Positions 10,945 through 63,843 of a DNA stretch of 64,000 nt are shown piece by piece (the stretch's first letter is position 1; the number at the start of each line of letters is the position of its first letter). The DNA is taken from contig CAXBMO010000019.1 of NCBI GenBank assembly GCA_963977015.1, forward strand, positions 1 through 64,000, given 5' to 3'. This stretch comes from an uncultured bacterium. Lineage in GTDB: Bacteria > Verrucomicrobiota > Verrucomicrobiia > Verrucomicrobiales > DEV007. The notes beneath the pieces were generated by a model. That model did not search any database and had not been told where the DNA came from. It saw only the letters and a program-made list of their open reading frames with translations. The translations under genes were made by a program, and so were the position numbers.

Positions 10945-11030
10945 AGTTCCGGCGCCACCCAGTCTGAACCGGAATAATCTATCATGGTTTCCGTGATGCC
11001 TCGTTTCGCAGTTCCTAGGAACCAGGTGTA

Positions 11031-11057
11031 GGCCGAGTTCACCAACTGAACTCGGCC
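11031..11057. other. Perfect 11-bp stem-loop upstream of the Zn-finger membrane gene
   Basis: GGCCGAGTTCA-CCAAC-TGAACTCGGCC; no U-tract; a 12-bp palindrome GTTCCTAGGAAC lies at 11011-11022. Confidence 0.6.
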
Positions 11058-11088
11058 AGCTAACCAACACCAAACCATCTTCATTCCC

Positions 11089-11511: not shown

Positions 11512-11571
11512 TTCAGCCAATCGATTGCGCTTGCCGGGTTCTGTGTTGAATTTGGAGTCAACACAAGCCCG

Positions 11572-30915: not shown

Positions 30916-30944
30916 TTAAAGAAAATTGCTAGTATATCCTTGTA

Positions 30945-30982
30945 GAGACCGGGGGTGGGGTTGCCTCCCGCTCCTGGTTTCT
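30945..30982 (+). other. GU-rich stem-loop between nrtA and nrtB (possible mRNA stabiliser or attenuator)
   Basis: GAGACCGGGGGTGGGG pairs with CTCCCGCTCCTGGTTTC. Confidence 0.45.
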
Positions 30983-31008
30983 CTCGGAACAACCATTGAT
31001 CCAAGCTT

Positions 31009-32154: not shown

Positions 32155-32164
32155 CGCACGAATC

Positions 32165-33064: not shown

Positions 33065-33070
33065 ATTATT

Positions 33071-33865: not shown

Positions 33866-33885
33866 CACTTTAAGAACATCGGACG

Positions 33886-35628: not shown

Positions 35629-35629
35629 C

Positions 35630-47739: not shown

Positions 47740-49011
47740 CTATTCGGAACCGAAGCAATAGAGATGCTCGACACCGCGCACAAGGAGTTTGCCGTTCACG
47801 GGAACCGGAGCCGCCGCCAACCGCTCACCCATCTCATTCTGGGAGAGCACCTCCATCGAGTCGTCGCTGATTTGCACGGTCGCGAGCACGCCGTCTTCCC
47901 GCGCACAGTAGAGAAGATCACCGGCGAGGATGGGTGACGAATAATACTTCGCCGCCGCCCTCGGGATGGCTCCGGTCCAGATGTCCTTGCCGGTCGTGGC
48001 TTCAATGCAGTGGATCTTGCCCCGATCAGTCAGCAAATACACTTTCCCGTCGCGCCCCACCGGAGTCGGGCAATCGGCGCCAACGTCTTCGCGTTCCCAA
48101 AGTCGACTCCCTTCCGTGATGTCCCCACTTCCGCCCATCTTCACGCCTGCGGTGAACTTCGTCCGCCCAAACGGGACGACCGCGATTCCCTCCGTAAACG
48201 CCGGCGAAGCGATCACGCGCCACATCGGTTTGTCGTCGGGGTTGAAGCCTCCGCAGGTCCAGATGATTTCTCCGTTCTCCGGATTGTGGCCCGTCAGGCG
48301 GTCCGCGCCCCAGACCACGATCGTCTCTTTGCCGTCGATCTCGGTGACGTAGGGAGTCGTGTAGGATTGTCCGGTCTCCTTCTGCACCTCATACGTGCGA
48401 TCGGCCTTCCAGACTTCGCTCCCATCTGCGGGATTCAGGGCAACCAGATAGGACTCGCCTTCCTGCATCACCGCGATGACGATGTTGCCACCGGCAAACA
48501 CCGGCGACGTTCCGAGATCCCACCACAGCGTGTCCTCGCCGTAACGTTCCTGCAGATTCGTCTTCCACTTCAGTTTTCCGTCGAGCGAAAACGAAGCCAC
48601 CGTGCCGCTCTTGTAATAGACGATCAGGTCCTCGCCATTGGTGATGGGGGAGGGGTTCGAGCCGCTACCGTTCTTGTGCTTTCCGGGACGCTCTTTCCCG
48701 AGTGTCTCCTGCCAGACTTGGTCGCCCTTCCAATTGTAAGCGGTGATTCCGTCTTCGCCGTTGATGCCGCTCGTCACGAAAATCTGGTCGCCCCACACAA
48801 TCGGGGTGCTGCTGCCCACGCCGGGCAACTTCACCTTCCACTGCACGTTCTTCTCCGGCGAAAACTCGGTTGGGTAGTCGCCGGGCGCCGCCAGACTCAG
48901 CCCGTCCGGGCCGCGCCACTGGGGCCAGTTGTCATTGGCGGAAGCATGCGAAAGGGGGAGTAAAATCCCCACAACAACTAGAATGGATTGGAATGGAAGC
49001 CTCGTGATCAT
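47740..49011 (-). CDS. PQQ-like beta-propeller protein (BamB-like PVC family)
   Basis: NWPQWRGP, WKVKLPG.GSSTPIV, repeated SP...G...W units. Confidence 0.85.
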   Translation of the reverse strand: MITRLPFQSILVVVGILLPLSHASANDNWPQWRGPDGLSLAAPGDYPTEFSPEKNVQWKVKLPGVGSSTPIVWGDQIFVTSGINGEDGITAYNWKGDQVWQETLGKERPGKHKNGSGSNPSPITNGEDLIVYYKSGTVASFSLDGKLKWKTNLQERYGEDTLWWDLGTSPVFAGGNIVIAVMQEGESYLVALNPADGSEVWKADRTYEVQKETGQSYTTPYVTEIDGKETIVVWGADRLTGHNPENGEIIWTCGGFNPDDKPMWRVIASPAFTEGIAVVPFGRTKFTAGVKMGGSGDITEGSRLWEREDVGADCPTPVGRDGKVYLLTDRGKIHCIEATTGKDIWTGAIPRAAAKYYSSPILAGDLLYCAREDGVLATVQISDDSMEVLSQNEMGERLAAAPVPVNGKLLVRGVEHLYCFGSE

Positions 49012-49158
49012 TGCGCCATTCCGACAATCGCCATCGAATTCAGGTTCAAAAATGCCTGCGGAAGTGTGAGGAACCGCCGAAGCGCCCCGACTGCGGTTCC
49101 CTCCTCGCGGAAACTGATTGCGCGAGATGCCTGGAGCGGCAGGTTCTCAGTCCAATCC

Positions 49159-50574
49159 ATGAAACCCCACATTCTCGCCCTGATTCTCACCGTCAGCCTC
49201 GTGGTTGGCGGTTCGGCCTCCGCTGCCGAGAAACCCAACATCATCTACATCCTCGCTGACGATCTCGGGATCGGCGACGTCGGCTGCTACGGCCAGCAGC
49301 TCCTCAAAACGCCCCGCATCGATCAACTCGCCGCCGAGGGCATGCGCTTCACCGAGCACTACACCGGCTCCGCCATGTGCGCGCCCACCCGCAGCAGCCT
49401 CATGACCGGGCAACACACCGGACACACCCGCGTTCGCAAAAACGGACACGGCCCACTTTTCGATGAAGACGTCACCATCGCCGAGGTGCTCAAAACCGCA
49501 GGCTATCGCACCGGTGCCATCGGCAAATGGGGAATTGGCGAAGCCGACACCACCGGCGCGCCTTGGAAGCAGGGTTTCGATCTCTTTTTCGGCTATCTCA
49601 ACCAGAGCAGAGCTCACCACCACTACCCGTCCTACCTCTGGCGAAACGACGAAAAGGTCCTCTATCCCGAAAACCCGAAGAAACGCACCCACTACAGCCA
49701 CGACGAGTTTACCCGCGAAGCGATGGACTTCATTCGCGCGAGCCAGGACGAGCCTTTCTTCCTCTACCTGCCCTACACCCTCGTTCATGTTGATCTCGAT
49801 GTGCCTGACGAAGATCTCAAGCCGTGGATCGGCAGGATCGAGGAAACCAAGCCCTACGGCACTCCCGGCGGCCAGCACTACATCCATCAGGAAACTCCCC
49901 ATGCCGCTTTCGCCGGAATGGTGACCCGGCTCGACCGCGACATCGGCCGCATTGTCGACCTCGTTGATGAACTCGGGCTTGCCGAAAACACCCTCATCAT
50001 CTTCACTAGCGATAACGGACCCACCTCAGCCGGAGGTGCGGATCCGAGATTCTTCAATGGCAATGGCGACTATCGCGGCATCAAGTTTGAACTCTACGAT
50101 GGCGGCATTCGTTGTCCCATGATCGCGCGTTGGCCCGGCAAGATCGCCGAAGGAACCGAAACGGATCACCTTTCCGCCCACTGGGACGTCCTTCCCACCG
50201 TTGCCGAGCTCGCCGCCACCGCAACGCCGGACAAGATCGATGGCATCAGCTTTCTCCCCACTTTGCTCGGTAAAGAGCAGGCCCGGCAACACGACTACCT
50301 CTACTGGGAAACCAACGGGCGATCCGGCTGGCAAGCCCTCCGCAAAGGCAACTGGAAAGCGCACCTGCAATGGGTCGGCGCCCCGGACAAAACCACCTTC
50401 GAACTCTACAACCTCACCAACGACCTCGCCGAAGAAAAGGACATCTCCGCCGCCCACCCTGAAGTCTCCGAGGAATTGAAGCAACTCATGGCCGCCGCTC
50501 GTACCGTCCCCCAGGGCAATGCCGAAATCCTCGGATCTTCGCCCAAAAAGAAGAAGCCGAAAGCCGGCAAGTGA
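49159..50574 (+). CDS. Arylsulfatase-family sulfatase
   Basis: PNIIYILADDLG, CAPTR, GKWG, SDNG; start MKPHIL with signal peptide. Confidence 0.92.
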   Translation: MKPHILALILTVSLVVGGSASAAEKPNIIYILADDLGIGDVGCYGQQLLKTPRIDQLAAEGMRFTEHYTGSAMCAPTRSSLMTGQHTGHTRVRKNGHGPLFDEDVTIAEVLKTAGYRTGAIGKWGIGEADTTGAPWKQGFDLFFGYLNQSRAHHHYPSYLWRNDEKVLYPENPKKRTHYSHDEFTREAMDFIRASQDEPFFLYLPYTLVHVDLDVPDEDLKPWIGRIEETKPYGTPGGQHYIHQETPHAAFAGMVTRLDRDIGRIVDLVDELGLAENTLIIFTSDNGPTSAGGADPRFFNGNGDYRGIKFELYDGGIRCPMIARWPGKIAEGTETDHLSAHWDVLPTVAELAATATPDKIDGISFLPTLLGKEQARQHDYLYWETNGRSGWQALRKGNWKAHLQWVGAPDKTTFELYNLTNDLAEEKDISAAHPEVSEELKQLMAAARTVPQGNAEILGSSPKKKKPKAGK

Positions 50575-50674: not shown

Positions 50675-51205
50675 ATGAATCAGAATCCACAGATATTATC
50701 GCTTGTTATAGCTCTTGGACTTATTGGATGCGCAGATGATTCCCCGGAGGGGGCGAGCGACCCGAAGTCCGGGCCTCCCGTGGAAACGGTGACCCTGCAG
50801 TGCCGCCAGGGGGCGCTCACATCGTCATACTCCTTTGAGATGGGCAAGGCGACGTCCGGCCTGACCGATATCAACTTCTACTTCGATGGGGACGACTGTT
50901 CTGAGGGCGCATTGTTCGGCCGCAATGATACCACGGGCTACATATTTCCGGTCGGTCAAGGAACGTGGGACGAGCTCTCGTTGGACGATCTACCGCAGGA
51001 GAGTTCCGAATCGGTCATCGGCTTTCGACCCATGGCGAAGGACAAGGAAGGGCTTGCGTTCTGGGTGAAGACGAAGAGCGCCAGATTTGCGTTGGTTAGG
51101 ATCAAGAGTGTGCAACCAGCTGCCTTCCCTGATTTCGAATCGGGCAAAACGGCGCAAGTGGTCTTGGAATGGGCATGGGGACGTCCTGACAAAGGAACCG
51201 AATAG
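50675..51205 (+). CDS. Hypothetical lipoprotein
   Basis: Lipobox LIGC after a hydrophobic stretch. Confidence 0.65.
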   Translation: MNQNPQILSLVIALGLIGCADDSPEGASDPKSGPPVETVTLQCRQGALTSSYSFEMGKATSGLTDINFYFDGDDCSEGALFGRNDTTGYIFPVGQGTWDELSLDDLPQESSESVIGFRPMAKDKEGLAFWVKTKSARFALVRIKSVQPAAFPDFESGKTAQVVLEWAWGRPDKGTE

Positions 51206-51296
51206 AATACGCGGAGGCGAATCCCAAAGACAGCTTGGAGCGATCGATTGTGGAACGGACTCGTGCCTTCCCTTGCGGTTTCCTTTTTGGCGCTGG

Positions 51297-51902
51297 TTAG
51301 GAGGCGGATGCCAACCAATCCTTCAGCTTCGCCAAGGCCCGTCCCCGGTGGCTCATGCTGTTCTTAATCTCCGACGAGAGTTGGCCGAAGGTTTCGCAGT
51401 GGCCTTCGGGAATGAAGAGCGGGTCGTAACCAAAGCAGCCTTCGCCTTTTTCCTGATTCGCGAGGATGCCCTCGACGGCACCATCGAAGGTGGCGAGAAC
51501 CTGATTCTGGCTGGCGAGGGTGAGGACGCAACGAAAGCGGCCACTGCGCGCTTTTCCTTTGGCCCCGGTTTTGTCGAGTTCGACGAGGAGCTTTTTGCGG
51601 TTGGATTCGTTGGTCGCGTTTTCGCCGGAGTAGCGGGCGGAGTAGACGCCGGGCGCACCGTCCAGGGCATCGACTTCAAGCCCAGAGTCGTCGGCGATGA
51701 CGGTTGCTTCGGGCATGGCCTGGCTGGCGGCGAGGGCTTTGATGGCGGAATTTTCGTGGAAGGTGGTTCCGGTTTCCTCCGCGGGCTCAAGCTCGGGGAA
51801 GGCGGTCAGGTCCACGATTTCGTCGTAGAAGTCCGCAAGGATCTCGCGGAATTCCTCCGTTTTGTGGGTGTTGTGCGTGGCAACAATGAGCGTTTTGGAC
51901 AT
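51297..51902 (-). CDS. rdgB: Non-canonical purine NTP pyrophosphatase (HAM1 family)
   Basis: ATHNTHK, ETGTTFHENS..KA, ADDSGLEVDALDGAPGVYSARY, FGYDPLF, KNSMSHR. Confidence 0.95.
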   Translation of the reverse strand: MSKTLIVATHNTHKTEEFREILADFYDEIVDLTAFPELEPAEETGTTFHENSAIKALAASQAMPEATVIADDSGLEVDALDGAPGVYSARYSGENATNESNRKKLLVELDKTGAKGKARSGRFRCVLTLASQNQVLATFDGAVEGILANQEKGEGCFGYDPLFIPEGHCETFGQLSSEIKNSMSHRGRALAKLKDWLASAS

Positions 51903-51929
51903 CGGCAGACCATGCTACATTCCTCCGAA

Positions 51930-54374
51930 ATGTCACACGGTCATCCCTTCGAACTCCTCTCTCCTGCCGGTAACTGGGATTGTGCCCGCGCGGCGGTGGC
52001 CAATGGCGCGGATGCGATCTATTTCGGGTTGCCGGCGTTCAATGCGCGGATTCGGGCGGACAACTTTACGGAGACGGATCTTCCGGAGCTGATGACGTTT
52101 CTGCACGAACGCGGCGTTCGCGGGTTTGTTGCGTTCAATACCCTCATTTTTACGGGCGAGTTGGAGGCGGCGGAGCGTCAATTGCGATTGATCCACGAGG
52201 CGGGCGTCGATGCGATCATTGTCCAGGATATCGGGTTGGCGAAGATGGCTCGGGCGATTTGTCCGGGCTTGGAGCTTCACGCCTCGACCCAGATGACAAT
52301 CACGTCGCCGGAGGCGTTGGAGTTTGTGAACGCGGCGTTCGAGTTGGATTGCGCGGTGATCGCGCGGGAGAATTCGCTGCGCGAGATGAAGTTGTTTCGC
52401 GCGGATGAAGCCGGGGCGGTGAAGCTGGAGACGTTCGTGCACGGGGCGCTGTGTGTGGCCTATTCCGGTCAATGCCTGACGAGCGAATCGCTCGGTCAAC
52501 GCAGCGCCAATCGTGGCGAATGCGCCCAGGCGTGCCGGATGCCGTATGACCTGATCGTCGATGGCGAGCAACGCGATCTGGGCGACAAGCGGTATTTGCT
52601 TTCGCCCCAGGATCTGGCGGGGATCGATGAGATTCCAGCTTTGATTGAGGCGGGGATCTCCAGTTTCAAAATCGAGGGGCGTCTCAAGACTCCCGAATAC
52701 GTGGCGGCGGTGACCCGCGTGTATCGGAAGGCGATTGATGCCGCCTTGAATGGGGAAGGGGAGCGGGCCAGTGAAGCTGATCGCTATGAATTGGAGATGG
52801 CGTTTTCGCGCGGGCTTCACAGCGGCTGGCTCAACGGGATCGACAACAAGAAGCTGGTTCATGCCCGGTTCGGGAAGAAGCGGGGCGCCTTTGTCGGGAC
52901 GATTTCGCAGGTGGGGCCGGATTGGGTCGAAGTGGAGCCTCAGGTTCCGGTGAAGAACGGCGATGGCGTGGTGTTTGATACCGGAGGCAACACGGACAAG
53001 GAGCAGGGTGGCCGAATTTATGGCGTCCATGGCAAGCGGCTCAGTTTCCAGCGGGAGAAGATTCGGTTTCAGGATCTGAAAGAGGGTGACCGGATTTGGA
53101 AAACGGATGATCCGGCCCTGAACGCGGAACTGCAGAAGTCGTGGAACGAATCGCGGCTCAAGCCTCAAAAGCAGATGTTGACCTGGGCGGTGGCTGGGCG
53201 GGCCGGGGATCCCTTGATCCTCACCGACTCAGGAACGGGAGCGAAGGTTGCTTCCTCGATTCCGCTGCAGGTCGCGGAACAACGGCCGCTGGCGGCCGAG
53301 TTTCTCCAGAAGCAGTTTGGCCGGCTCGGCAACACGGCTTACCAATTGGAGTCGCTGGATGTCGATCTGGAAGGCGAGGTGATGCTCCCGGTGAGCGAGC
53401 TGAACCGGATGCGGCGGGCGATGGTCGAGAAACTGGAGCAGGAGCCTGACGCGGCCAAACCGGCTCGTGTTTCGACGAACGTTTCCGTTGCGGAGTTGCT
53501 TCCCAAGCTTCCTGAGAACGACCGGGGTGCCGAACCGGTTCTTTATGTGTTGTGCCGCAATCAGGAGCAGGTTGATGCGGCGCTTTCCGCCAAGGTGGAA
53601 CGCATCTACGCCGACTTCGAGGATGTTCGGCGTTATCGCGACGTCGTGCGATCGGTTCGCGAGAGCGGTGTGAACTCGCGCATTTATCTGGCGACACCGC
53701 GCATCCAAAAAGCGGGCGAATCCGGCTTGTTCCGAGTCGTTGAAAAAGCGAAGCCGGACGGCGTTCTGGTTCGCAACCTGGGCGGAGTGCAGCACTTTCG
53801 CGAGCACGGCGAACTCGAGATGATCGGTGATTTTTCGCTCAACGTGGCCAACCCGATCAGCGCGGAATTTTTCCGGGGCCAGGGCTGTCGGAACCTGACG
53901 ATTTCCTACGATCTCAACATTGGCCAGGTGCTTGATCTCCTGGCGAAAGCGCCACCGGCCTGGTTCGAGATCACGCTGCATCAACACATGCCGATGTTTC
54001 ACATGGAGCACTGCGTGTTTTGCTCGTTCATCTCCGAAGGGACGGACGTCACCAATTGCGGGCGTCCCTGCGATACCCACGAAGTCGAGTTACGCGATCG
54101 CGTTGGTCAGCGCCATATTCTGAGCGCGGACGTGGGTTGCCGCAATACGCTCTACAATGGCCGGGCGCAAAGCGGCGCCCGATTCTTTGGGAACCTGCTC
54201 GATTCCGGGTTGAGACAGTATCGCGTGGAGTTGCTCAAGGAGAATCGCGAGGAGGCGGCCGCGACGATCACGGCCTATCAGGATCTCCTGAGAGGGAGTG
54301 AGGGCGGGACCCAACTCTGGGAACGCCTCCAAGTGGAGTCGAAGCTGGGAGTGGTCGAGGGAACGTTGGCCTGA
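51930..54374 (+). CDS. Peptidase U32 family Fe-S protein, long RlhA-like form (likely RNA hydroxylation)
   Basis: ELLSPAG, GADAIYFG, HASTQM, HGALCVAYSGQC, NRGECAQACR, FKIEGR; start reset to MSHGH. Confidence 0.85.
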   Translation: MSHGHPFELLSPAGNWDCARAAVANGADAIYFGLPAFNARIRADNFTETDLPELMTFLHERGVRGFVAFNTLIFTGELEAAERQLRLIHEAGVDAIIVQDIGLAKMARAICPGLELHASTQMTITSPEALEFVNAAFELDCAVIARENSLREMKLFRADEAGAVKLETFVHGALCVAYSGQCLTSESLGQRSANRGECAQACRMPYDLIVDGEQRDLGDKRYLLSPQDLAGIDEIPALIEAGISSFKIEGRLKTPEYVAAVTRVYRKAIDAALNGEGERASEADRYELEMAFSRGLHSGWLNGIDNKKLVHARFGKKRGAFVGTISQVGPDWVEVEPQVPVKNGDGVVFDTGGNTDKEQGGRIYGVHGKRLSFQREKIRFQDLKEGDRIWKTDDPALNAELQKSWNESRLKPQKQMLTWAVAGRAGDPLILTDSGTGAKVASSIPLQVAEQRPLAAEFLQKQFGRLGNTAYQLESLDVDLEGEVMLPVSELNRMRRAMVEKLEQEPDAAKPARVSTNVSVAELLPKLPENDRGAEPVLYVLCRNQEQVDAALSAKVERIYADFEDVRRYRDVVRSVRESGVNSRIYLATPRIQKAGESGLFRVVEKAKPDGVLVRNLGGVQHFREHGELEMIGDFSLNVANPISAEFFRGQGCRNLTISYDLNIGQVLDLLAKAPPAWFEITLHQHMPMFHMEHCVFCSFISEGTDVTNCGRPCDTHEVELRDRVGQRHILSADVGCRNTLYNGRAQSGARFFGNLLDSGLRQYRVELLKENREEAAATITAYQDLLRGSEGGTQLWERLQVESKLGVVEGTLA

Positions 54375-54385: not shown

Positions 54386-54922
54386 TTAGGCGGCGCCACC
54401 GCGTTTCTTCTTTTTCGGAGCGTCCGTCACCCTTGCCTCCAGCAGTCCGCGATGAGCCTCGCCACCGATTTGATCCAGCACCCGCTGGTAGATTTTGCCC
54501 ATTTGCTCGGCTTCTTCTTCCGTGAGGTATTGAACGAAATTTTGTTCGATCAAGGGGCGGTAGGTTTTCCAGGCTTGATTGAGGGCCCGGCGGCCGGCTG
54601 CGCTCAGGCTGACCTGGAAGACTCTTCCATCGCTGCGGCTCTGCTTGCGCAATAGCAGGCCGCGTTCGGCCAGGCGGGCGGCGCGGCGGGACATTCCGCT
54701 TTTGCTGAGAAGCACCGCATCCGCCAGTTCCCCCATGGTCATGGTCTCATTCGTGGCCTCGTTGACGGTGAGAAGCACGTCGTAATCGCCGAAGGAGATG
54801 CAGCCCTCGGCCTGTAATCCTTCGTCAATCTTTTGGCAGGTCAAAGCATGGACGGTGAGGAACAGTCGCCATGCCACTTGCTGCGGCAGTTTGTCCGGAA
54901 AATTGGATGCTGGAGGATTCAT
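54386..54922 (-). CDS. MarR family transcriptional regulator
   Basis: YDVLL, MGELADAVLLSKSGMSR, DGR...LS.AGR; start MNPPAS. Confidence 0.88.
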   Translation of the reverse strand: MNPPASNFPDKLPQQVAWRLFLTVHALTCQKIDEGLQAEGCISFGDYDVLLTVNEATNETMTMGELADAVLLSKSGMSRRAARLAERGLLLRKQSRSDGRVFQVSLSAAGRRALNQAWKTYRPLIEQNFVQYLTEEEAEQMGKIYQRVLDQIGGEAHRGLLEARVTDAPKKKKRGGAA

Positions 54923-54972
54923 GAAGATGGGACAAGAACCCCGATCGGGGCTGTCTGCAAGTGCTGAGCAAA

Positions 54973-54990
54973 TAGTTGCACATGCAAATA
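54973..54990. promoter_or_regulatory. Palindromic candidate MarR operator
   Basis: TAGTTGCA-CA-TGCAAATA between marR and the ABC operon, just upstream of the sigma54-type site. Confidence 0.55.
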
Positions 54991-55001
54991 AATGTCTGGG
55001 T

Positions 55002-55017
55002 TGGCATTGAAGATGCT
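55002..55017 (+). promoter_or_regulatory. sigma54-type -24/-12 promoter of the glnT operon
   Basis: TGGCATTGAAGATGCT (GG-N10-GC), close to consensus. Confidence 0.65.
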
Positions 55018-55105
55018 CGATGGTTGAGGCGACTAGCAAGTCTTTTCCAATGTCCACGCCTTTTGCCAACTCTTCACCACTCACGCGTCATCGTGTGATT
55101 CTGTA

Positions 55106-55879
55106 ATGATTGATTTCGGAAGTTCCATCAACAGCGGATCTCGTCTCGGGTTAGGCGTAGCTGCGTGGGTCTGCTTTCTGGGAGGTTGGTACCTCCTGGC
55201 CACGTCCGGTTTGGCCAATGCCGCTCTCCTTCCGGATCCGCTTCAAGTGGGACGAGCGTGGTGCGAACTCTTTGCGGAGCGGGGGTTCCTTCATGACGTT
55301 GCACAGAGTGTAAAGCGGATCTTCCTGAGTTTTGGAATCGCGCTGTTGATCGCTCTTCCCCTTGGAATGTTGATGGGGGCGTTTGTCCCGGTGGAAGCAT
55401 TCTTGAATGCTCTCGTTTCTCCTTTTCGATATCTTCCGGCTCCGTCTTTTGTTCCGCTTCTACTGATGTGGTTGGGAACAGGGGATGGTCAAAAAGTGGC
55501 ACTTCTGGTGATTGGGGTGGTCTTTTTTTTGACAACGATGTTCATGGATAACACCCGGGCGGTGCGTCCGGAACTGATTGATTGTTCGCGAACGCTTGGT
55601 GCGAATCGATTGCGTGTTCTTACCCATGTAATACTTCCAGCCGCCCTACCCAGCTATGTAGATACGGCCAGGCAAATGCTGGCGGTGAGCTGGACCTATC
55701 TGGTGATCGCGGAAATCGTCGCCGCCAGCAACGGGATCGGAGCGATGATGATGCGGGCCAAACGCTTTGTTCAGGTAGACGACATCATGGCGGGCATCCT
55801 GACCATTGGAATTCTTGGGCTGCTGACCGATGCCGCGATTCGCTATCTCCATCGCCTGTTCTTTCGCTATCTCCACTAA
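55106..55879 (+). CDS. NitT/TauT-family ABC permease
   Basis: FRYLPAPSFVPLL, RTLGA...VILPAALP, WTYLVIAE. Confidence 0.9.
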   Translation: MIDFGSSINSGSRLGLGVAAWVCFLGGWYLLATSGLANAALLPDPLQVGRAWCELFAERGFLHDVAQSVKRIFLSFGIALLIALPLGMLMGAFVPVEAFLNALVSPFRYLPAPSFVPLLLMWLGTGDGQKVALLVIGVVFFLTTMFMDNTRAVRPELIDCSRTLGANRLRVLTHVILPAALPSYVDTARQMLAVSWTYLVIAEIVAASNGIGAMMMRAKRFVQVDDIMAGILTIGILGLLTDAAIRYLHRLFFRYLH

Positions 55880-55906
55880 CTAAACATCAATACCACCACC
55901 AAACCT

Positions 55907-56983
55907 ATGACTACAATACATCGAAACCTGAGCGTCATTGCCGGCTGCTGCCTGCTCTTCTCTGGTTGCAGCAAACCTGAGGGCGGGGAGGCGGCTTCCA
56001 CGGAAGCCTCCGTGACGCCGCAAACCGTGAAAATCTCTCTCTTCTCCTGGCCGGGATACGCCTTCTGGTTCGTTGCGAAAGAGAAGAACCTCGTTCCGGA
56101 GTTGGATCTGGATCTTGTGATTATTGAGGATCCCTACGAGAGCTTTGCCCAGATGGCGGCCGGCCAGTTGGACGTGACCTCTTCCACCGTGGAATACGGC
56201 CCGATCGCAGCTGATCAGGATGTGCCCGTAAAGTTGGTGACCTACACCAACCCTTCTTATGGAACGGATAAGATCATCCTCGGCCCGGGAGTGACCAGTG
56301 CGGCAGATCTCAAGGGAAAGGAAGTTGCCGTTCTCGAAGGAGGCCTGACCCAGATCTATATGGGAATCTGGCTCGAGGAAAATGGCGTCAAATTTGACGA
56401 GGTAAAGTATAGCAACCTGATCATGGACGATGCGGTTGCAGCCATGGTCAGTGGCAAAGTGGCCGCTGGTGAGTTCTGGGAGCCTTTCGGCAGTAATGTA
56501 TTATCCAGTCTTCCCGGTTGCACGGTCGCGGCGACCTCAAAAGATCCGTATTATAAGAAAACCGCGCTCCTCGGAGACGGGATGTACATGAGTGGCTCTT
56601 TTTTGTCCGAGAAGCCGGAGCTCGCAAAGTTGACCTTGAAGGCTTACTTCAAAGCGGTTGAATTCTGGGAGGCCAACCCGGCCGAGGCCAATGCGATCAT
56701 GGCAAAAGGCCTGAACTTTCCGTTGGAAGACGTCGAAACCGTGATTGGAGCCTCCGGGGAGTCGAGCGACGGCGGAGTCTACGCATTCAACTATGAAGAA
56801 GCCGGCCAGTTCATGGGTGTCCTGGAAGGGGTGCCTCCCTTTGGCGGGAATGGCGAGATCAAGAATCATTGGAAGCTCACCAACGACTGGTGGGTGAAGT
56901 TCGGAGCGGTCGGGAAAGACTATCCGATGGAATCCGGCGTCGATCTGGCACCCTTCACGGCGCTTGCTGAAGAAGGCCTCTAA
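55907..56983 (+). CDS. NitT/TauT-family ABC substrate-binding lipoprotein
   Basis: Lipobox FSGC; SWPGY, SYGTDKI, DLKGKEVA, WEPF. Confidence 0.88.
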   Translation: MTTIHRNLSVIAGCCLLFSGCSKPEGGEAASTEASVTPQTVKISLFSWPGYAFWFVAKEKNLVPELDLDLVIIEDPYESFAQMAAGQLDVTSSTVEYGPIAADQDVPVKLVTYTNPSYGTDKIILGPGVTSAADLKGKEVAVLEGGLTQIYMGIWLEENGVKFDEVKYSNLIMDDAVAAMVSGKVAAGEFWEPFGSNVLSSLPGCTVAATSKDPYYKKTALLGDGMYMSGSFLSEKPELAKLTLKAYFKAVEFWEANPAEANAIMAKGLNFPLEDVETVIGASGESSDGGVYAFNYEEAGQFMGVLEGVPPFGGNGEIKNHWKLTNDWWVKFGAVGKDYPMESGVDLAPFTALAEEGL

Positions 56984-57029
56984 GGAAGACCCGCTCACCC
57001 CTTTTATAGTGCTTGTTTCATCCTTGCCC

Positions 57030-57761
57030 ATGCCCAAGCCCGCGGGCCCTGGCTGTCTCCGGTTTCCGGAGATGGTCAGGGTTCCGCAAGGGGAAGGCAT
57101 CATGGGCGCCGTTACGGAAGACAAGTTTGCAACCTCGGTGGAGCTTCCGCCGACACGAACCCATTTTTCGCGGGAGTTTGCGCTCAGCCGAACGCCGGTG
57201 ACCCAGGCGCAATGGAGCGAGGTGATGGGGGAGCTTCCGCGGGAGTGTCCTACTGGGGTTGATGCGACCTGCCCGGTTGTGGGAGTGTCCTTTGCCGATG
57301 TCATGATCTATCTGGAGAAACTTTCCCAGTTGCGTGGGGAGACCTACCGTCTTCCGAGCGAGGCTGAGTGGGAGTATGCCTGCCGCGCGGGTTCGGTCTC
57401 CATTTTTCCCTTTGGATCCAACATCAGCCTGGGTGATGCCAATTATCTGTATGATGAGCGGGGGACGGCCATCGGCTGCGGCGCCCTCACTCCAGTGATG
57501 ACGTATCCCGCGAACGCGTTTGGGTTCTGCGACCTGTTGGGAAACGTCTGTGAGTGGACCGCCGATCTGTGGCATCCGAGTCACGACGGCGCTTCTCCCA
57601 ACGGCGCGGCGCGGACCGGCGGAGCGAAAACGAATTGCCGGACCATCCGCGGCGGTGCGTGGGATCATCTTCCCCGGGTTCTGCGCGCTTCCTGGCGCGA
57701 TTGGGCTCCGGAAGAGGCCCGCTGGGACAATCTGGGCTTTCGCGTAGCCCATAACCTTTGA
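57030..57761 (+). CDS. FGE-sulfatase (SUMF1) domain protein lacking the catalytic cysteine pair
   Basis: PVTQAQW, YRLPSEAEWEYACRAG, NAFG..D..GNV.EW, RGGAW, LGFRV; start uncertain. Confidence 0.82.
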   Translation: MPKPAGPGCLRFPEMVRVPQGEGIMGAVTEDKFATSVELPPTRTHFSREFALSRTPVTQAQWSEVMGELPRECPTGVDATCPVVGVSFADVMIYLEKLSQLRGETYRLPSEAEWEYACRAGSVSIFPFGSNISLGDANYLYDERGTAIGCGALTPVMTYPANAFGFCDLLGNVCEWTADLWHPSHDGASPNGAARTGGAKTNCRTIRGGAWDHLPRVLRASWRDWAPEEARWDNLGFRVAHNL

Positions 57762-57768
57762 AGAACCA

Positions 57769-58641
57769 ATGAAACTCTCTCTTTTTAAAACACTCTGGGG
57801 ACATGAGTCCTCGCTTTCGGATGCGATCCAATGCTGCCACGATGCCGGCTTTCAAGGCATTGAAAGTCCCGCCCCGCGCGATGGGTCCGAGCGGAAGGCC
57901 TTCTTTGAGGCGCTGGAGGCTGCCGACCTGAAATGGATTGCGGAAGTCAGCACCTGCACCCTGGACGGGACCTACGTTCCGCAGCCTGGTCGCAGCGTTA
58001 CCGATCACCTGGATTCGCTTCGCGAGGGGGTGGAGCGGAGCCTCACTGGAACCCCACTTTTTATCAATACCATGGCTGGGTACGATGCGTGGAGCATTGC
58101 CGATGCCATTGCGTTTTATCAGGGGGTTGTGAAGCTGGAGGAGGAACTGGGAATCCCGATCTCTGCGGAGACGCATCGAGGTCGGTCCACTTACAGCCCG
58201 TGGATTACGCGGGACATTTTATTGGAGACACCGGACTTGCGACTCACCTGTGATTTCAGTCACTGGTGCGTGGTGAGCGAGCGCCTGATTCTCGACGAAG
58301 AACCAGAGATTCTCCAGCTTGCCGCGAAGCACGCGTATCACATTCAGCCGCGGATTGGGTATGGCCAGGGGCCCCAGGTTCCCGACCCCCGTGCTCCGGA
58401 ATATCAGGAAGCGCTCCAGGCTCACGAACGTTGGTGGACGGTGCTTTGGGAGGCGATGGCGGCTCGCGGGAGGCGGGAAATGACCATGACGCCTGAGTTT
58501 GGGCCGGATGGTTACCTTCAATGTGCACCGTTCACCAGGGTGCCTGTCGCCGACCTTTGGGACATCAACACCTGGGTCGGGCATCGCCAGTTGGAACGCT
58601 TTCAGAACCACTTTCAAAATCAAACCATCGTATCCTCATGA
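57769..58641 (+). CDS. Xylose-isomerase-like TIM-barrel protein of unknown function
   Basis: KTLWG, GFQGIE, ETHRGR, DFSHW, QGPQVPDP, PEFGP. Confidence 0.8.
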   Translation: MKLSLFKTLWGHESSLSDAIQCCHDAGFQGIESPAPRDGSERKAFFEALEAADLKWIAEVSTCTLDGTYVPQPGRSVTDHLDSLREGVERSLTGTPLFINTMAGYDAWSIADAIAFYQGVVKLEEELGIPISAETHRGRSTYSPWITRDILLETPDLRLTCDFSHWCVVSERLILDEEPEILQLAAKHAYHIQPRIGYGQGPQVPDPRAPEYQEALQAHERWWTVLWEAMAARGRREMTMTPEFGPDGYLQCAPFTRVPVADLWDINTWVGHRQLERFQNHFQNQTIVSS

Positions 58642-59873
58642 CAACACTAACCGAACCATTACCTCCCGTCCAATCCACCAAGGACGAGTCCCTTTTCGCG
58701 GCGATTCTCGCTTCGGCGGAGAAACCGCGCGAAAAATCAACCAGCCTTCCCTCTGCGGCTTACCACGATCCTGAGTTCCTCAAGTTCGAGGAAGCTGAGA
58801 TATTCAGGAAAGAATGGATCTCACTCTGCCATGTTTCACAGGTGGCCAAGGCAGGCGATTTCGTTCGTGTCGATGTCGCCGGCGAACCGATGTTGGTCGT
58901 TCGCGGAAAAGACATGGAGATCAAGGTCCTGTCCCGCACCTGTCGTCACCGGGGCATGGAAATCATGCCTTCCGGGTTTGGGCATCCGAATGAAGGGAAC
59001 CAACGCGTCATCCTTTGCCCTTATCATCTCTGGAGTTATGATCTCAACGGCAAATTGGTTGGAGCTCCGGAAATGCAGGAGGCCGCGGAGTTCGACCGCA
59101 GCGAGGTCTGTCTCCACCAATATAGAAGCGAGGTTTGGGAAGGGTTTGTCTTTGTGACACTCTCCGACGACATTCCTCCCGTCGCCGAAAAGTATGCTCA
59201 ATTGAAGGACGACTTTGTCGGGAGATGGGACATGGGGGATGGAGAGTTGGTTTGGTCAGCTCATTGGGAATGCAATTTCAACTGGAAGATTCTTCTGGAG
59301 AACTTCATGGAGGCCTACCATCACCTCGGTGCCCACATGAAGACGCTGGAGCCGTTCCTGCCGGCCAAGGGATGCTGGACGGAGCCTTACGATCCGGAAT
59401 TCTCCTGCATGCATCTTCCGCTCAAGGACAGCATGATCGAGGAAATTCAAAAAACGAAAGACGCCGGCACTCCGTTTCCGGTCTTTCCGACCCTGGAACT
59501 GGATGACTACTGCAAGTGGTGGGTCTTCCTGGGGAACCCGAACTTCCTGCTCTTCTCCGCACCGGACCGGGTTTACTGGTATCGCCTGCTTCCCACCGGG
59601 CCGGAGACCTGCACGCTCATGACCACCATGATTGTGCCGAAGGCGGCCTTGGAAATGCCGGACTACGAAGCCGTGCTCGAGAAGGAAATCGCCGCGGGAA
59701 TCGAGTTTCACATGGAAGACATGGAAGTCTGCGCCGCCACCCAGCGCGGTGTCAAATCAACGGGCTTCACCCCGGGACGTCTCAGTCATTTGGAGCAACC
59801 CATCTGGCACTTTCAAAAATACCTGGCTGAGGTGATTCGGAAATCCTCAGTTGGTCAATCCCTTGCCCAGTAA
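58638..59873 (+). CDS. Rieske non-heme iron oxygenase alpha subunit (choline monooxygenase/CntA/GbcA-like)
   Basis: CRH...CPYH Rieske motif; NWK...[13 protein letters not shown] iron site; ED..VC...QRG; ATGA overlap with upstream gene. Confidence 0.88.
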
Positions 59874-59880
59874 CATCAAG

Positions 59881-61242
59881 ATGATATCCAATTCAAAAAT
59901 TCAGGCTCTCCAGGAGTCGCTCAAGGCGCAGGGCGTCAAGTACTGTGTCGGCGCCTATGTCGATATCCACGGAGTGCCGAAGGGGAAGTTCGTTCCGATC
60001 GATCACTTCCAGCATTTTGCCCACGGGTCCGAGCTTTACACCGGCTATGCGCTGGATGGCCTGGGACAGCGACCGAATGATGACGAGATTGCCTCCGTTC
60101 CTGACGTTGATTCAATCACGATCCTGCCGTGGAACAAGGAAGTCGCCTGGATGCCGGCGGACAACACGTTCAAAGGGGAGCCTTATCCCATCAATACGCG
60201 GGTTGCCTTGAAGAAGCAGTTGCAAGCCGCCGCCGACATGGGGTTTGGATTCAATCTGGGGATTGAGTGTGAAGTCTTTGTCGTCAAACAAAGGGAGGAT
60301 GGAAGTCTGGAGATCCCGAACGACGACGATGATCTGGAGAAGTCGTGTTATGATGTGAAACGCTTCCTCGACCGCTACACGTGGTTGGATAAGGTCTCGA
60401 CCACGATCAACGATCTGGGTTGGGGACTCTATTCCCTCGATCATGAAGATGCGAACTCGCAGTTCGAGTTCGACTTCAATTATGCAGATGCGTTGACGAT
60501 GTGTGATCGCTACATCTTCTTCCGTCTCATGGCCAAGCAGTATGCTGCCGAGGAAGGATTGCTCGCCACCTTCATGCCGAAGCCGTTCGCCGATAAAACG
60601 GGTTCGGGCGCGCATTTTAACATGTCCCTGTTCGACAAGGATACCGGGGAGAACCTTTTCAAGTGTGCCCCTGAAGCCGATCCGCGTGGATTGGGTTTGA
60701 CCGAGCTGGGCTACCAATTTATTGGCGGAATTCTCAAGCACGGCCGGGCGCTGTGCTGTGCTTATGCACCAACGGTAAATAGTTACAAACGACTGGTTCG
60801 TCGGGGCTTGATGTCCTACTACACATGGGCACCCGTGTTCAATAGTTACGGCAAGAACAACCGGACGAATGCGATGAGGGTGCCAATGGGTGGCGGTCGC
60901 GTTGAGTCCCGCAATGCCGACGCCTCCTGCAATCCCTACCTCGCGGCGACCCTTGCCCTCGCGGCGGGTCTGGAAGGAATTCGCGAAAACCTGGATCCCG
61001 GCGAGGCGATCGAGGACAACCTTTACGAACTCACTCCGGAGCAATTCGCAGAACGGGGAATCGAAGAATTACCAACCACGCTGAAGGAGGCGGTGGAAGC
61101 ATTCTCGGCTTCGCCCTTTGTGGAGGATGTGTTGGGTTCGGAACTCCGACAGGAATTCATCACTTATAAATCCGAGGAATGGCGTCAATACCACCAGCGA
61201 ATCAGTCAGTGGGAATATGAGCAGTATGCAAGGTTGTTTTGA
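59881..61242 (+). CDS. glnT: GlnT-type glutamate-amine ligase (GmaS-like gamma-glutamylamide synthetase)
   Basis: [48 protein letters not shown] flap, NNRT, ESRNAD...NPYL. Confidence 0.85.
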
Positions 61243-61297: not shown

Positions 61298-62287
61298 TTA
61301 GTCCGTGAGCACCGGCGCCAGATAGAGGTTGCGATAGGAAACCGCAGTGTGGTCACCCTGAATATAGATGGGGCCGGGCGCCGAGGGATCGGTATGGATG
61401 GCCCCGGCCGTCGGTCCCGGCACGGGCTGATTGTCGATCACGGTGACGCCGTTCAAAACGACGGTGACATGGCGATCCACCAGGGTAAGATCATAGGTTT
61501 GCCATTCACCTCCGGGTTTTCCGGCATTCGTCGATGGGGGAATCCTCCCAAAGATTGCCCCAACGCCCTGGAGGCCCTGCATCCGGCTGTCGCGATCCAC
61601 GACCTGAGCCTCATACATCCCCCGAAGATAGATGCCGCTGTTGCGCTGCGCGCCGACCAGGAATTCGACATGTAGCCAGAAATCCTCAAAAACCGCTTCG
61701 GTCTTCAGGTTCGCATGATCGCCTGTGGCGCTGAAGTCGGTTTTCGGGGTGCTGTTGACGAGCATGCCATCCTTGACGCTCCATCCGTTGATTTTGTCAG
61801 GCTCATGAGGGATCCAGCCGGTCAGGTCCCTGCCATTGAAGAGCGCAATGGGATGCCCAAATCGAACCTTGGAGAGGTCCGGTGCTTTGGTTGGCATGGG
61901 CGGAATCTTCGTGCCTGTAAACGCGACGTTCTCCGCGGTGCCATCAGGAAAGGTCTGCAAAATTGTCCCGTCGAGTTTTCCATCGACGATCCCAACGTCG
62001 ACCGTTTGCGTTGGCACGCCCTCCTTCTTCCGTTTCTTGAGCGCAAATTTGATCCGGCCATCAACGACTTCGACGTTTTCAAACGGACCGGCAGATCCAA
62101 CATACAATCGGAAGAACACGACCGGATTTCCTTCCTTTTCCTGAATGCTCATCCAACCGGGAACACCGGATTCAACCTCGAGCGACCAGTCCCCCCAAAG
62201 GCTCTCGGGAATCGATTGAGCATGCACCGAAGAGATGAAGAGCAGGAACAGGCAGGGCAGGAGTTTGCGATGGAGAGTCATGAACAT
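61298..62287 (-). CDS. DUF1080 domain secreted protein
   Basis: LFNGRDLTGW, NSGIYLRG.YE.QV, GEWQTYD, QGDH...YRN. Confidence 0.85.
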   Translation of the reverse strand: MFMTLHRKLLPCLFLLFISSVHAQSIPESLWGDWSLEVESGVPGWMSIQEKEGNPVVFFRLYVGSAGPFENVEVVDGRIKFALKKRKKEGVPTQTVDVGIVDGKLDGTILQTFPDGTAENVAFTGTKIPPMPTKAPDLSKVRFGHPIALFNGRDLTGWIPHEPDKINGWSVKDGMLVNSTPKTDFSATGDHANLKTEAVFEDFWLHVEFLVGAQRNSGIYLRGMYEAQVVDRDSRMQGLQGVGAIFGRIPPSTNAGKPGGEWQTYDLTLVDRHVTVVLNGVTVIDNQPVPGPTAGAIHTDPSAPGPIYIQGDHTAVSYRNLYLAPVLTD

Positions 62288-62454
62288 GGGGTTGGGAAGT
62301 GAGCGTTAAAGGGGCCATCAAGGAGATGCCCGCCGCGTTTGAAATGCCAACGTTTTTCTGAGTGGGGATTCGAAAAATGACGGGGCGGTAATGAAAATAG
62401 AATCGATTTGAAGGAAACTGGGGTTTCATCTTTTTGACCAGCCGCAAATTCCCC

Positions 62455-63843
62455 ATGAAATGGTTCCCCCAACTCTTCCTCGCTCTGACCGTGTTCTCCA
62501 GTAGTGCACTCGGTCAGGATCAGCCCAACTTCCTGTTTCTGCTTTCCGACGACCAGGCCTGGAACGAACTCTCCTGCCAGATGCATCCGGAAATGCCGGA
62601 GTCGAAGAGCCAAATCGTGCAGACTCCAAACATCGCGAAACTGGCGAGCCAGGGGATGCGATTCAGCGCGGCATATTCACCGACATCCGTGTGTTCGCCC
62701 TCGCGCATCAGCCTGCAAACGGGGAAGAGTCCGGCCCAATGTGGTTGGACCAAGGCGGGGCCGGTGATGAGAGCTGGAGCCGGGTTCAAGCTCATTCCGC
62801 CGCCGAGCCGGAGCCACATCGAAGCTGGCGAAGTGACGATTGGCGAGCTGCTGCAATCCGCCGGCTATCGCACGGCACATTATGGCAAGTGGCATCTTGG
62901 GGGCGGCGGTCCCGGGAATCATGGTTACGACGAGAGCGATGGAGATACTGGAAACCGGGACGCAGCTCCACACGTCGAGCCCAATCCGGTCGATATCTTT
63001 GGGATGAGCAGTCGCGCTCAGGCGTTCATGGAGACGAGCCGGAACGCTGGCAAACCCTTCTTCATCCAGATGTCGTTTTACGCCCTGCATTATCCGCAGA
63101 ATGCGAGCAGGTCGCTGGTCGAGAAATATCAGGCCTTGAATCCGCGCGGTAGGGAAAGGGAGATTGGGCGTGCTGCGATTTCCGAAGATCTGGATCGTGG
63201 GGTGGGGGAGTTGATGGCCAAAATCGAGGAATTGGGGATCGGGGACCGCACCTACGTGATTTACATGTCGGACAATGGCAGCTCGACCGGCAACACGCTG
63301 AATGGCGGGAAAGGCGACGTTTGGGAAGGAGGGATCCGGGTGCCGCTGATGGTTCGGGGGCCCGGGATTGCGGCGAACTCATGGAATCATCAACGCGTCG
63401 TCGGTTACGACTTTTATCCCACGTTCTGCAAATTGGCCGGTGTGAAGCAAAAGCTGCCTTCGACGACCGAAGGAGGACTGATCGATCATCTCTTCCACGG
63501 AAGTTCCGAGCCTGTGAAACGTCCGCGCGAGGAACTGGTTTTCCATTTTCCGCACTACCAGGGCGATGCGCCTCACACCGCGTTGTTTCTTGGCGACTAC
63601 AAGTTGATCCGGTTCTACGAGGATCATTCGCTCCAACTCTACAACGTCAGTGAGGATATCGGAGAACGGAACAATTTGTTGAGCGAGAAGCCGGATTTGG
63701 CGGACCAGATGTTGGCACGGATGGATGCTTATCTGGAGGCGGTGAACGCGGGATTGCCAACGCCAAATCCGAACTATGATCCGGAGAATCCGCCCAATCT
63801 TCGAGAGGTGAACCGGGGCAAGAAGGGCGGAAAGAGAAAGTGA
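62455..63843 (+). CDS. Sulfatase (S1 family)
   Basis: PNFLFLLSDDQ, CSPSR, GKWHL, SDNG, WEGGIRVP; signal peptide. Confidence 0.9.
   Translation: MKWFPQLFLALTVFSSSALGQDQPNFLFLLSDDQAWNELSCQMHPEMPESKSQIVQTPNIAKLASQGMRFSAAYSPTSVCSPSRISLQTGKSPAQCGWTKAGPVMRAGAGFKLIPPPSRSHIEAGEVTIGELLQSAGYRTAHYGKWHLGGGGPGNHGYDESDGDTGNRDAAPHVEPNPVDIFGMSSRAQAFMETSRNAGKPFFIQMSFYALHYPQNASRSLVEKYQALNPRGREREIGRAAISEDLDRGVGELMAKIEELGIGDRTYVIYMSDNGSSTGNTLNGGKGDVWEGGIRVPLMVRGPGIAANSWNHQRVVGYDFYPTFCKLAGVKQKLPSTTEGGLIDHLFHGSSEPVKRPREELVFHFPHYQGDAPHTALFLGDYKLIRFYEDHSLQLYNVSEDIGERNNLLSEKPDLADQMLARMDAYLEAVNAGLPTPNPNYDPENPPNLREVNRGKKGGKRK

Follow-up and report, generated by a model that had tools for sequence, protein, structure and literature searches.

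The subject of this study is a group of genes in an uncultured bacterium of the Verrucomicrobiales (lineage DEV007), carried by the first 64,000 nucleotides of contig CAXBMO010000019.1, a stretch analysed as a whole and called the window below. The source genome comprises 6.9 Mb in 51 contigs and is 95% complete, and the named homologues of proteins encoded in the window belong to Verrucomicrobiota of the Akkermansiaceae, Luteolibacter or Haloferula kind. A search of sequencing runs listed six DNA runs, with shares of 0.13-0.46, and no RNA run. Six co-directional genes at 55106-61242 make up an operon that is real, conserved and undescribed in Verrucomicrobia, and that possibly provides an oxygenase front end to guanidine assimilation. 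All six are on the forward strand. The first encodes an ABC permease of the NitT/TauT type (55106-55879; BPD_transp_1, 71 bits), and is followed by genes for a lipoprotein-type binding protein of the NMT1/SsuA family (55907-56983; NMT1, 53.7 bits; SsuA_fam, 98.9 bits, below its cut-off of 163.5), a PvdO-like protein with the fold of formylglycine-generating enzyme (FGE) that lacks the cysteine pair (57030-57761, with an alternative TTG start at 56964; FGE-sulfatase, PF03781, 155.6 bits over residues 35-262), a xylose-isomerase-like TIM-barrel protein recognized from its AlphaFold model (57769-58641), a Rieske non-haem iron oxygenase of the alpha-only type (58638-59873; Rieske, 67.4 bits; Ring_hydroxyl_A, 105.4 bits) and a glutamate ligase resembling glutamine synthetase (GS), from the GlnT/GmaS superfamily (59881-61242; Gln-synt_C, 310 bits; TIGR03105, 623.9 bits against a cut-off of 469.6). 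A gene for a MarR-family regulator diverges upstream, on the reverse strand (54386-54922; MarR_2, 41.6 bits; MarR, 32.7 bits). From permease to ligase the intergenic gaps are 27, 46, 7, -4 and 7 bases; the ATGA overlap of the TIM stop with the Rieske start and the 7-base gap upstream of the ligase ATG were read directly in the sequence. An original prediction, made from the DNA letters alone, had described six close co-directional genes with one overlap behind a divergent marR, and both the open reading frames and this direct reading confirm it. The two motifs that it singled out, TWAP (within YYTWAP) in the ligase and ENFMEAYH in the Rieske protein, are present in the translations, and mgsABC and mgd are indeed not beside the ligase in the window.

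Conservation of the neighbourhood was examined through the TIM protein, which has 576 relatives when one genome per species is scanned. The best 80 loci were retained, and 44 of these, with at least 7 kb on each side of the TIM gene, are called full loci here. The set co-occurs across genomes: the full loci hold the FGE gene in 42 cases, the permease in 42, the Rieske gene in 41, the ligase and the binding protein in 39 each, a creatininase-family gene in 38, CgdA/B in 27, the guanidine carboxylase in 25, a NikR-like regulator in 21 and MarR in 12. Over the 80 loci, FGE and TIM genes are adjacent 66 times, ligase and creatininase genes 37 times, and ligase and Rieske genes 7 times. Synteny spans the Verrucomicrobiota, one Methylomirabilota bin and Gammaproteobacteria, in several gene orders, and public metagenomes contain the TIM orthologue (at least 58% identity) in more than 120 distinct clusters at 90% identity. 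A phylum-wide sample of 201 genomes gave nine TIM matches, eight of them outside the source genome; seven of these eight belong to a distant subfamily (30-36% identity) with no partner genes at all, and this sample therefore says little, beyond yielding one more true module, in a genome (G045) that also carries CgdB. The common layout could be annotated gene by gene in an isolate, Luteolibacter algae KCTC 22040 (locus L045), where it consists of three operons. The first encodes a uca-type binding protein, a permease, an ATPase, the ligase and the creatininase-family protein, and is followed by marR on the opposite strand; the second encodes the permease, the binding protein, the FGE-fold protein, the TIM protein and the Rieske oxygenase; the third encodes a NikR-like protein, UAAP1 and UAAP2 (cgdA and cgdB), the carboxylase (TIGR02712, 1796 bits) and allophanate hydrolase. 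An alpha/beta-hydrolase gene of esterase/lipase-like type, absent from the window, lies between the Rieske and NikR-like genes of this isolate (L045:12130-12945). The window is a rearranged form of the common layout, in which the ligase gene has moved behind the Rieske gene and the remaining supercluster lies on another contig, C1.

That contig links the operon to guanidine. It carries a paralogous Rieske/FGE/TIM/ligase set, 44-51% identical to that of the window, contiguous with genes of a guanidine pathway in a supercluster at C1:96399-116200 (locus L013 corresponds to 95000-114999). The supercluster encodes a uca-type binding protein, a permease, a creatininase-family protein and a second ligase (TIGR03105, 433.6 bits, below cut-off); a CMD-family protein, a flavin reductase, an oppositely oriented Zn-ADH, the Rieske, SDR and FGE proteins, a polysaccharide-deacetylase-family protein and the TIM protein; and an ABC ATPase (forward strand), a NikR-like regulator, two DUF1989 proteins, a 1193-residue biotin carboxylase and allophanate hydrolase. 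The NikR-like, DUF1989, carboxylase and allophanate hydrolase genes match the published guanidine pathway, from guanidine carboxylase through CgdAB to allophanate hydrolase, as it appears in the accessible part of PMC12508155. In other genomes the entire set lies within the carboxylase/CgdAB pathway, and the association extends to a dependence at the level of genomes. Within a panel of 41 relatives, themselves mutually kin, so that the counts give a pattern and not a test, a TIM orthologue (at least 47% identity) is present in 10 genomes, 9 of which have CgdB (TIGR03424) above cut-off, the tenth being a genome only 59% complete; CgdB occurs in 7 of the 31 relatives that lack the TIM orthologue.

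Riboswitches extend the association to Gammaproteobacteria. In a Nevskiales locus (L095), with a TIM protein 51% identical to that of the window and a ligase 73% identical that bears the same pocket signature, a Guanidine-I riboswitch precedes cgdA and a Guanidine-II riboswitch precedes the carboxylase gene. This locus has neither the Rieske nor the FGE gene, and an oxygenase of the FA_desaturase di-iron type is encoded directly before the TIM protein instead. In another gammaproteobacterial locus (L101), a Guanidine-II riboswitch stands directly before an oxygenase gene of that same type, with a TIM homologue next door. The oxygenase type is therefore replaceable, while the TIM enzyme and the link to guanidine stay. 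At the latter locus (L101:2385-5123) genes for an MBL-fold hydrolase and an EamA transporter come next after the riboswitch and oxygenase, and the arrangement looks like an undescribed riboswitch-controlled trio. The NikR-like regulator (RHH and NikR_C domains; L045:12957-13478, L013:8124-8699, L095:15669-16613) is encoded at the head of the cgdAB-carboxylase operon in Verrucomicrobia, where the loci scanned have no guanidine riboswitch, and after the ligase in Nevskiales; possibly guanidine or nickel is sensed by this protein.

Control of transcription points the same way. Between marR and the permease gene lie a sigma54-type -24/-12 element, TGGCATTGAAGATGCT (TGGCAT-N6-TGCT, a match to GG-N10-GC; 55002-55017, forward strand), and, 14 bases upstream of its -24 element, a palindrome, TTGCACATGCAA (TTGC-N4-GCAA; 54976-54987). 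Both had been noticed in the original prediction, and both are kept in all 14 orthologous marR-permease intergenic regions, with variable spacer and flanks; the consensus of the palindrome over the 14 aligned regions is A.TTA.TTGC....GCAA.TA, and the palindrome is a plausible candidate for the MarR operator. The window has two matches to the sigma54-like pattern for 0.19 expected, a count reached by 2 of 100 shuffles. The second match, at 58093-58108 on the reverse strand inside the TIM gene, was judged probably due to chance. Genome-wide, the 6.9 Mb contain 51 matches, four of them within the 23-kb cluster of C1 and one before the operon of the window. Because the same pattern precedes the importer gene and the NikR-like gene of the guanidine cluster on C1, the operon and the guanidine genes seem to share a sigma54 regulon. 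The pattern also lies upstream of the importer operon in three other genomes, and the genome under study encodes RpoN together with at least eight full-length sigma54 enhancer-binding proteins. No sigma70-like site was found upstream of the permease gene, and terminator-like sites within the operon are no commoner than in shuffles. A MarR orthologue occupies the same divergent position in 20 of the 80 loci, including 12 of the full ones. The operon is probably sigma54-dependent and gated by MarR.

The ligase scores above the cut-off of the superfamily model TIGR03105, in a family that NCBIfam names type III glutamate-ammonia ligase, and its best solved relatives are GmaS 9qur (379 bits) and RhGmaS 7cql (309 bits). 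Residue roles are those given for RhGmaS in the accessible part of PMC7948447, and the references for comparison were four GmaS genes located beside mgsABC on plasmids of an Acinetobacter, a Methylobacterium, a Rhizobium and a Rhodobacteraceae strain. The ligase of the window retains Asp177, Glu179, Glu186 and the flap tryptophan, its YYTWAP aligning with the ATWAP of the four GmaS, and has threonine in place of Asp50'; the hallmarks of an enzyme that does not use ammonia, of which the original prediction had named the tryptophan flap, are thus present as far as PMC7948447 describes them in its accessible part. The pocket departs from that of RhGmaS: Gln175 is replaced by Ser, Asn188 by Asp and Trp189 by Phe, in an alignment of all 54 cluster-associated ligases, and Gln175 and Asn188 are present in 4/4 of the context-verified GmaS. 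Identity to the GmaS encoded beside mgsABC is 36-41%, and the orthologues of the ligase are 68-85% identical across three phyla, usually adjoining the creatininase-family gene. A canonical GmaS of the methylamine type was rejected on account of the Ser and Asp of the pocket and of a context without mgsABC/mgd. Its sequence and its usual neighbours, which are the creatininase-family hydrolase and an importer of the guanidine type, place the ligase in a guanidine-operon subfamily, and its roomier, more acidic pocket would fit a larger cationic nucleophile, guanidinium for example. The creatininase-family protein matches solved creatinine amidohydrolases (88 bits), a match that does not by itself define the substrate. 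The housekeeping GS is probably the 750-residue type encoded elsewhere in the genome.

The Rieske protein has the expected CxH/CxxH cluster ligands, a 2-His-1-carboxylate iron site and a bridging glutamate, Glu225; C102, H104, C127, H130, E225, H228, H233 and D361 are invariant in 75 homologues. The solved structures nearest to it are those of Stc2 (3vca, 127.8 bits) and CntA (6y8j, 102.5 bits), which upholds the proposed kinship with oxygenases that cleave C-N bonds near a cationic nitrogen, and with 151 bits against the GbcA model, for a cut-off of 670, it is not an equivalog of GbcA, CntA or Stc2. The FGE-fold protein is closest, among solved structures, to PvdO (5hha, 100.5 bits). In an active FGE the copper-binding cysteine pair follows an RGGSW motif, as in the human enzyme; the stretch after the corresponding RGGAW is here DHLPRVLRASWR, without cysteine, and no cysteine is invariant in 75 homologues. 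A true formylglycine-generating enzyme was accordingly rejected for want of the catalytic pair. What the protein shares with the oxygenase is its distribution: 41 full loci have both genes and 2 have neither, one has FGE without Rieske and none has Rieske without FGE, a concordance in 43 of 44. A predicted complex of the two reached ipSAE values of 0.76, 0.80 and 0.73, against 0.00 in three controls, with at least 97% contact agreement between runs and partner pLDDT of at least 90. The mark used for such predictions is reached by 58 of 80 solved complexes and by 2 of 110 mismatched pairs, counts that hold only roughly here since the paired alignments were our own, with 36 rows each. The predicted interface involves residues 72, 91-93, 123-126, 131, 133, 139 and 141-156 on the Rieske-domain side and the invariant D31, E143, W181, D212, R216, D224, D233 and N234 on the FGE side. 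The protein had been assigned an unspecified step in the original prediction; complex prediction and concordance suggest instead that it is probably a partner of the Rieske enzyme. We know of no solved Rieske-FGE complex, and literature searches retrieved none.

The TIM protein has no Pfam match of its own, and a search of its profile against solved structures by sequence found nothing. The AlphaFold model (pLDDT 93.9) is a xylose-isomerase-like barrel, which superimposes on Art22 (8z1i; VIA Z 19.7, root-mean-square deviation 3.2 Å, 246 residues aligned) among many tied neighbours; Foldseek gives TM of about 0.6, the fold is one dominated by sugar isomerases, epimerases and inosose enzymes, and the ESM Atlas confirms only a sugar-phosphate-isomerase-like family name. 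E134, D162, H191 and E243, invariant in the 80 homologues, would by analogy with the AP_endonuc_2 superfamily constitute a metal-binding tetrad; R137, R139 and R195 are invariant as well. Since the tied structural neighbours include metal-dependent lyases, such as C-glycoside and 3-keto-glucoside lyases, a lyase role is possible, and the protein may be regarded as a candidate metal-dependent lyase or isomerase.

The transport genes encode a binding protein and a permease of a NitT/TauT importer, with no ATPase in the operon. The nearest NCBIfam models of the permease are SaoP, TauC and SsuC, all below cut-off. The binding protein has weak SsuA-type matches among solved structures (25-29 bits) and is only 24-30% identical to the uca-type binding protein of the neighbouring guanidine/urea importer. 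In the genome the cluster ATPase has a single orthologue, encoded at C1:103735-104619, with 69% identity to the ATPase of L. algae.

These components can be assembled into a pathway, for which we infer the substrate class, the chemistry of each step and the sequence in which ligase and oxygenase act. The binding protein and permease, borrowing the ATPase of the guanidine cluster on C1, would import a nitrogen compound of the substituted guanidine type. The Rieske monooxygenase, with the FGE-fold accessory protein docked on its Rieske domain, would hydroxylate the carbon adjoining a guanidino nitrogen, and the metal-dependent TIM-barrel enzyme would resolve the resulting hemiaminal or process the carbon fragment. 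The ligase would take the guanidine moiety, forming from ATP and glutamate a gamma-glutamyl adduct to be handled by the creatininase-family hydrolase, and guanidine carboxylase, CgdAB and allophanate hydrolase, encoded at C1:96-116 kb, would complete the breakdown. Alternatively, the ligase might act first, the oxygenase and TIM protein then working on a gamma-glutamyl derivative. We give this reading of the operon, as an oxygenase module that releases guanidine from a substituted guanidine and passes it to the assimilation pathway, a probability of roughly 45%. The original prediction had envisaged import of an N-alkylated compound, oxidative cleavage of a C-N bond and capture of the released amine as a gamma-glutamyl amide. 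Of this, a conserved nitrogen-scavenging operon with the appearance of co-transcription stands, while the ligase is not a GmaS of the methylamine type, as pocket residues and context indicate, and the amine set free is most probably guanidine or one of its derivatives rather than an alkylamine. Guanidine is preferred as the released moiety because of the context of the ligase subfamily and of the embedding of the set in the carboxylase/CgdAB pathway. The arginine-rich site of the TIM protein and the kinship of the Rieske protein with betaine oxygenases are hints of a substrate that bears an acidic group, as in guanidinoacetate or creatine, or else of a gamma-glutamyl derivative. A more ambitious proposition, still doubtful when its parts are taken jointly, is that the cysteine-less FGE is an obligate accessory subunit of the Rieske enzyme and that, together with a TIM-barrel lyase and a guanidine-specific pair of glutamate ligase and acylguanidine hydrolase, the two form a new ATP- and glutamate-dependent route by which guanidine is released and captured from guanidino compounds abundant in nature (creatine, guanidinoacetate and methylguanidine-type, for instance) in Verrucomicrobia and some Proteobacteria.

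Several observations weigh against guanidine release as the function of the operon. The window itself has no guanidine gene adjacent to the operon, the pathway being on another contig, and 17 of the 44 full loci have no CgdA/B within 10 kb. An Rfam scan of the window and of seven verrucomicrobial or Methylomirabilota loci (L013, L045, L025, L070, L071, L075 and L121) found no guanidine riboswitch and no other RNA family. At two loci (L055 and L060, about 7270-12100) the permease, binding protein, FGE, TIM and Rieske genes are flanked by sulfatases only, and within 10 kb the ligase and guanidine genes are both missing. In the orthologous locus closest to that of the window (G016, 72-82% identity) the Rieske gene adjoins no ligase, and ligase-Rieske adjacency is rare among the 80 loci; the Rieske-ligase junction of the window is therefore uncommon. 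The invariant arginine cluster of the TIM protein suggests an anionic rather than a cationic ligand. The operon has no gene for a Rieske reductase, and the sole NAD_binding_1 protein of the window is a flavoprotein of the nitrate cluster some 20 kb upstream. Finally, the 80 loci were picked by TIM similarity and are kin, so that counts over them are not independent, and the score of the Rieske-FGE complex is a model's confidence, obtained from our own alignments.

Among the alternatives, the one that survives best, unlikely as it is, would have the operon process a primary amine through a gamma-glutamyl shuttle, as in the aniline-dioxygenase or isopropylamine systems, with the guanidine genes near only through shared nitrogen control. 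The ligase would glutamylate the amine, the Rieske enzyme oxidize the amide and the TIM protein split the N-acyl hemiaminal into glutamine and an aldehyde, with the creatininase-like hydrolase clearing surplus adduct. A GS-like ligase paired with a Rieske oxygenase is known in the degradation of aniline and 1-naphthylamine, as described in the accessible parts of PMC11335346 and PMC4539516, and the two genes are neighbours in the window, in the 7 loci noted above and in a mixed operon of another genome (G009). An arginine-rich TIM site would suit the glutamyl carboxylate, and TIM, ligase and creatininase remain associated at loci with another type of oxygenase. Such a shuttle nevertheless leaves unexplained both the near confinement of the module to genomes with CgdB (9/10 versus 7/31) and the Guanidine-II riboswitch before the alternative oxygenase, and the window encodes neither the small Rieske subunit nor the amidotransferase-like hydrolase of the aniline system.

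It is less probable still that, as in the original prediction, guanidine has no part in the matter, and that an N-alkylated or quaternary amine is imported and cleaved at a C-N bond by the Rieske enzyme in the manner of CntA or GbcA, the small alkylamine released, methylamine for example, being trapped by a GmaS-type ligase. The TIGR03105 score above cut-off, a glutamate-methylamine ligase as the best solved relative, the tryptophan flap, the resemblance of the Rieske protein to Stc2, CntA and GbcA and the position of the ligase gene directly behind the Rieske gene in the window would all agree with this scheme. Against it, two residues of the methylamine pocket differ from the four GmaS in every one of the 54 cluster-associated ligases, the ligase gene usually lies beside a creatininase-family hydrolase and a guanidine/urea-type importer, and the module tracks CgdB at the level of genomes. 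There is no mgsABC/mgd nearby or in the 80 loci: tblastn with Acinetobacter MgsA, MgsB and MgsC returned no match in these loci and only distant matches elsewhere in the genome. Least probable is a set of neighbours that share no pathway, a GlnT-type ammonia ligase in a nitrogen island next to Rieske, FGE and TIM proteins degrading a sugar- or inositol-like compound, an idea to which the NCBIfam name of the ligase family, a TIM fold mostly of sugar isomerases, epimerases and inosose enzymes, the SDR and polysaccharide-deacetylase-family genes of the paralogous modules and the abundance of nitrogen-assimilation genes in the region (nitrate cluster at 29.5-41 kb) lend some colour, but which sits badly with a ligase devoid of the Asp50' and catalytic flap glutamate of ammonia-using GS (PMC7948447, accessible part) and with synteny across Verrucomicrobiota, a Methylomirabilota bin and Gammaproteobacteria, in tight spacing with one overlap. 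Purine/8-oxoguanine, inositol-type and cyanotoxin substrates were also considered, and no supporting evidence was found for them.

As for the surroundings of the operon, a 1095-residue U32 peptidase of the collagenase type is encoded upstream of marR (51087-54374), and a secreted protein of the DUF1080/3-keto-disaccharide hydrolase family downstream on the reverse strand (61298-62287); neither gene is conserved with the operon. Two sulfatases of the window are encoded at 48988-50574 and 62434-63843. The wider region is rich in nitrogen-acquisition genes, among them a nitrate-assimilation-like cluster at 29539-41093, which comprises an NMT1_2 binding protein, a permease, two ABC ATPases, a 580-residue flavodoxin/FAD/NAD reductase, a nitrite/sulfite reductase, an Fe-S/DmsC-like protein and a molybdopterin oxidoreductase.

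Only after 2017 did guanidine gain recognition as a metabolite and nitrogen source of bacteria, and the question of its natural origin is still open. The module is a candidate for a widespread route from substituted guanidines to guanidine in Verrucomicrobia, and it points to unrecognized steps in bacterial nitrogen scavenging. With the GS-like ligase and its creatininase-like partner, a conserved pair, bacteria may have a means of dealing with guanidine that is not yet described, and the Rieske-FGE pairing, if true, would be a new kind of Rieske partner protein and an undescribed oxygenase architecture. The isolate L. algae KCTC 22040 carries the full supercluster, which makes these questions directly testable. 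A literature search, in which subscription journals were scarcely covered, retrieved no description of the gene set, of a Rieske enzyme in guanidine metabolism or of a Rieske-FGE pair, in keeping with the initial impression that this is not a described pathway.

Several parts of the system have known counterparts from which they depart. The FGE-fold protein shares with PvdO and other non-catalytic members the FGE-sulfatase fold without the copper-binding cysteine pair. In contrast to PvdO, its sequence shows no signal peptide and indicates a cytoplasmic protein, its gene goes together with that of a Rieske oxygenase, and its invariant residues lie in the predicted interface. The Rieske protein has the CxH/CxxH cluster, 2-His-1-carboxylate iron site and bridging glutamate of Stc2, CntA and GbcA, yet it scores low against them, has no adjacent reductase gene and would carry the FGE-fold partner on its Rieske domain. 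The ligase has in common with GmaS (7cql, 9qur) a TIGR03105 score above cut-off, the tryptophan flap, Asp177, Glu179 and Glu186 and the lack of Asp50', and differs by Ser175, Asp188 and Phe189 and by its usual partner, the creatininase-family hydrolase instead of mgsABC/mgd. The aniline and 1-naphthylamine systems likewise encode a glutamate ligase and a Rieske oxygenase together, with a hydrolase that can reverse glutamylation, according to the accessible parts of their descriptions; unlike them, the present set has no small oxygenase subunit and no amidotransferase-type hydrolase, its ligase is of another subfamily, and its context is guanidine assimilation where theirs is aromatic catabolism.

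The nearest likeness in proposed role is the MgdH/MgdL system of Vreelandella boliviensis. According to the accessible part of PMC12508155, MgdH, a 2-oxoglutarate (2OG) oxygenase, and MgdL, a lyase, are encoded within a guanidine carboxylase operon and demethylate methylguanidine through a hemiaminal with a half-life of more than 1 h. There too an oxygenase and a second enzyme stand beside gca-cgdAB-atzF and an ABC importer, and a substituted guanidine is turned, or here would be turned, into guanidine via a hydroxylated intermediate for the assimilation of nitrogen. Placement by gca-cgdAB-atzF is seen here in 27 of the 44 full loci and in the paralogous cluster of C1, the pathway being on the other contig in the case of the window. 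The parts differ. The oxygenase is a Rieske enzyme (an FA_desaturase-type one in Nevskiales), which Pfam places in a different superfamily from 2OG dioxygenases; the candidate lyase is a TIM-barrel metalloenzyme, set beside MgdL by description only; the set further includes an FGE-fold partner, a GS-like ligase and a creatininase-family hydrolase; and control would be exerted by sigma54, MarR and NikR-like proteins, where MgdH/MgdL relies on riboswitches. By analogy, the operon would represent an oxygenase extension of guanidine assimilation made from different parts and with extra components.

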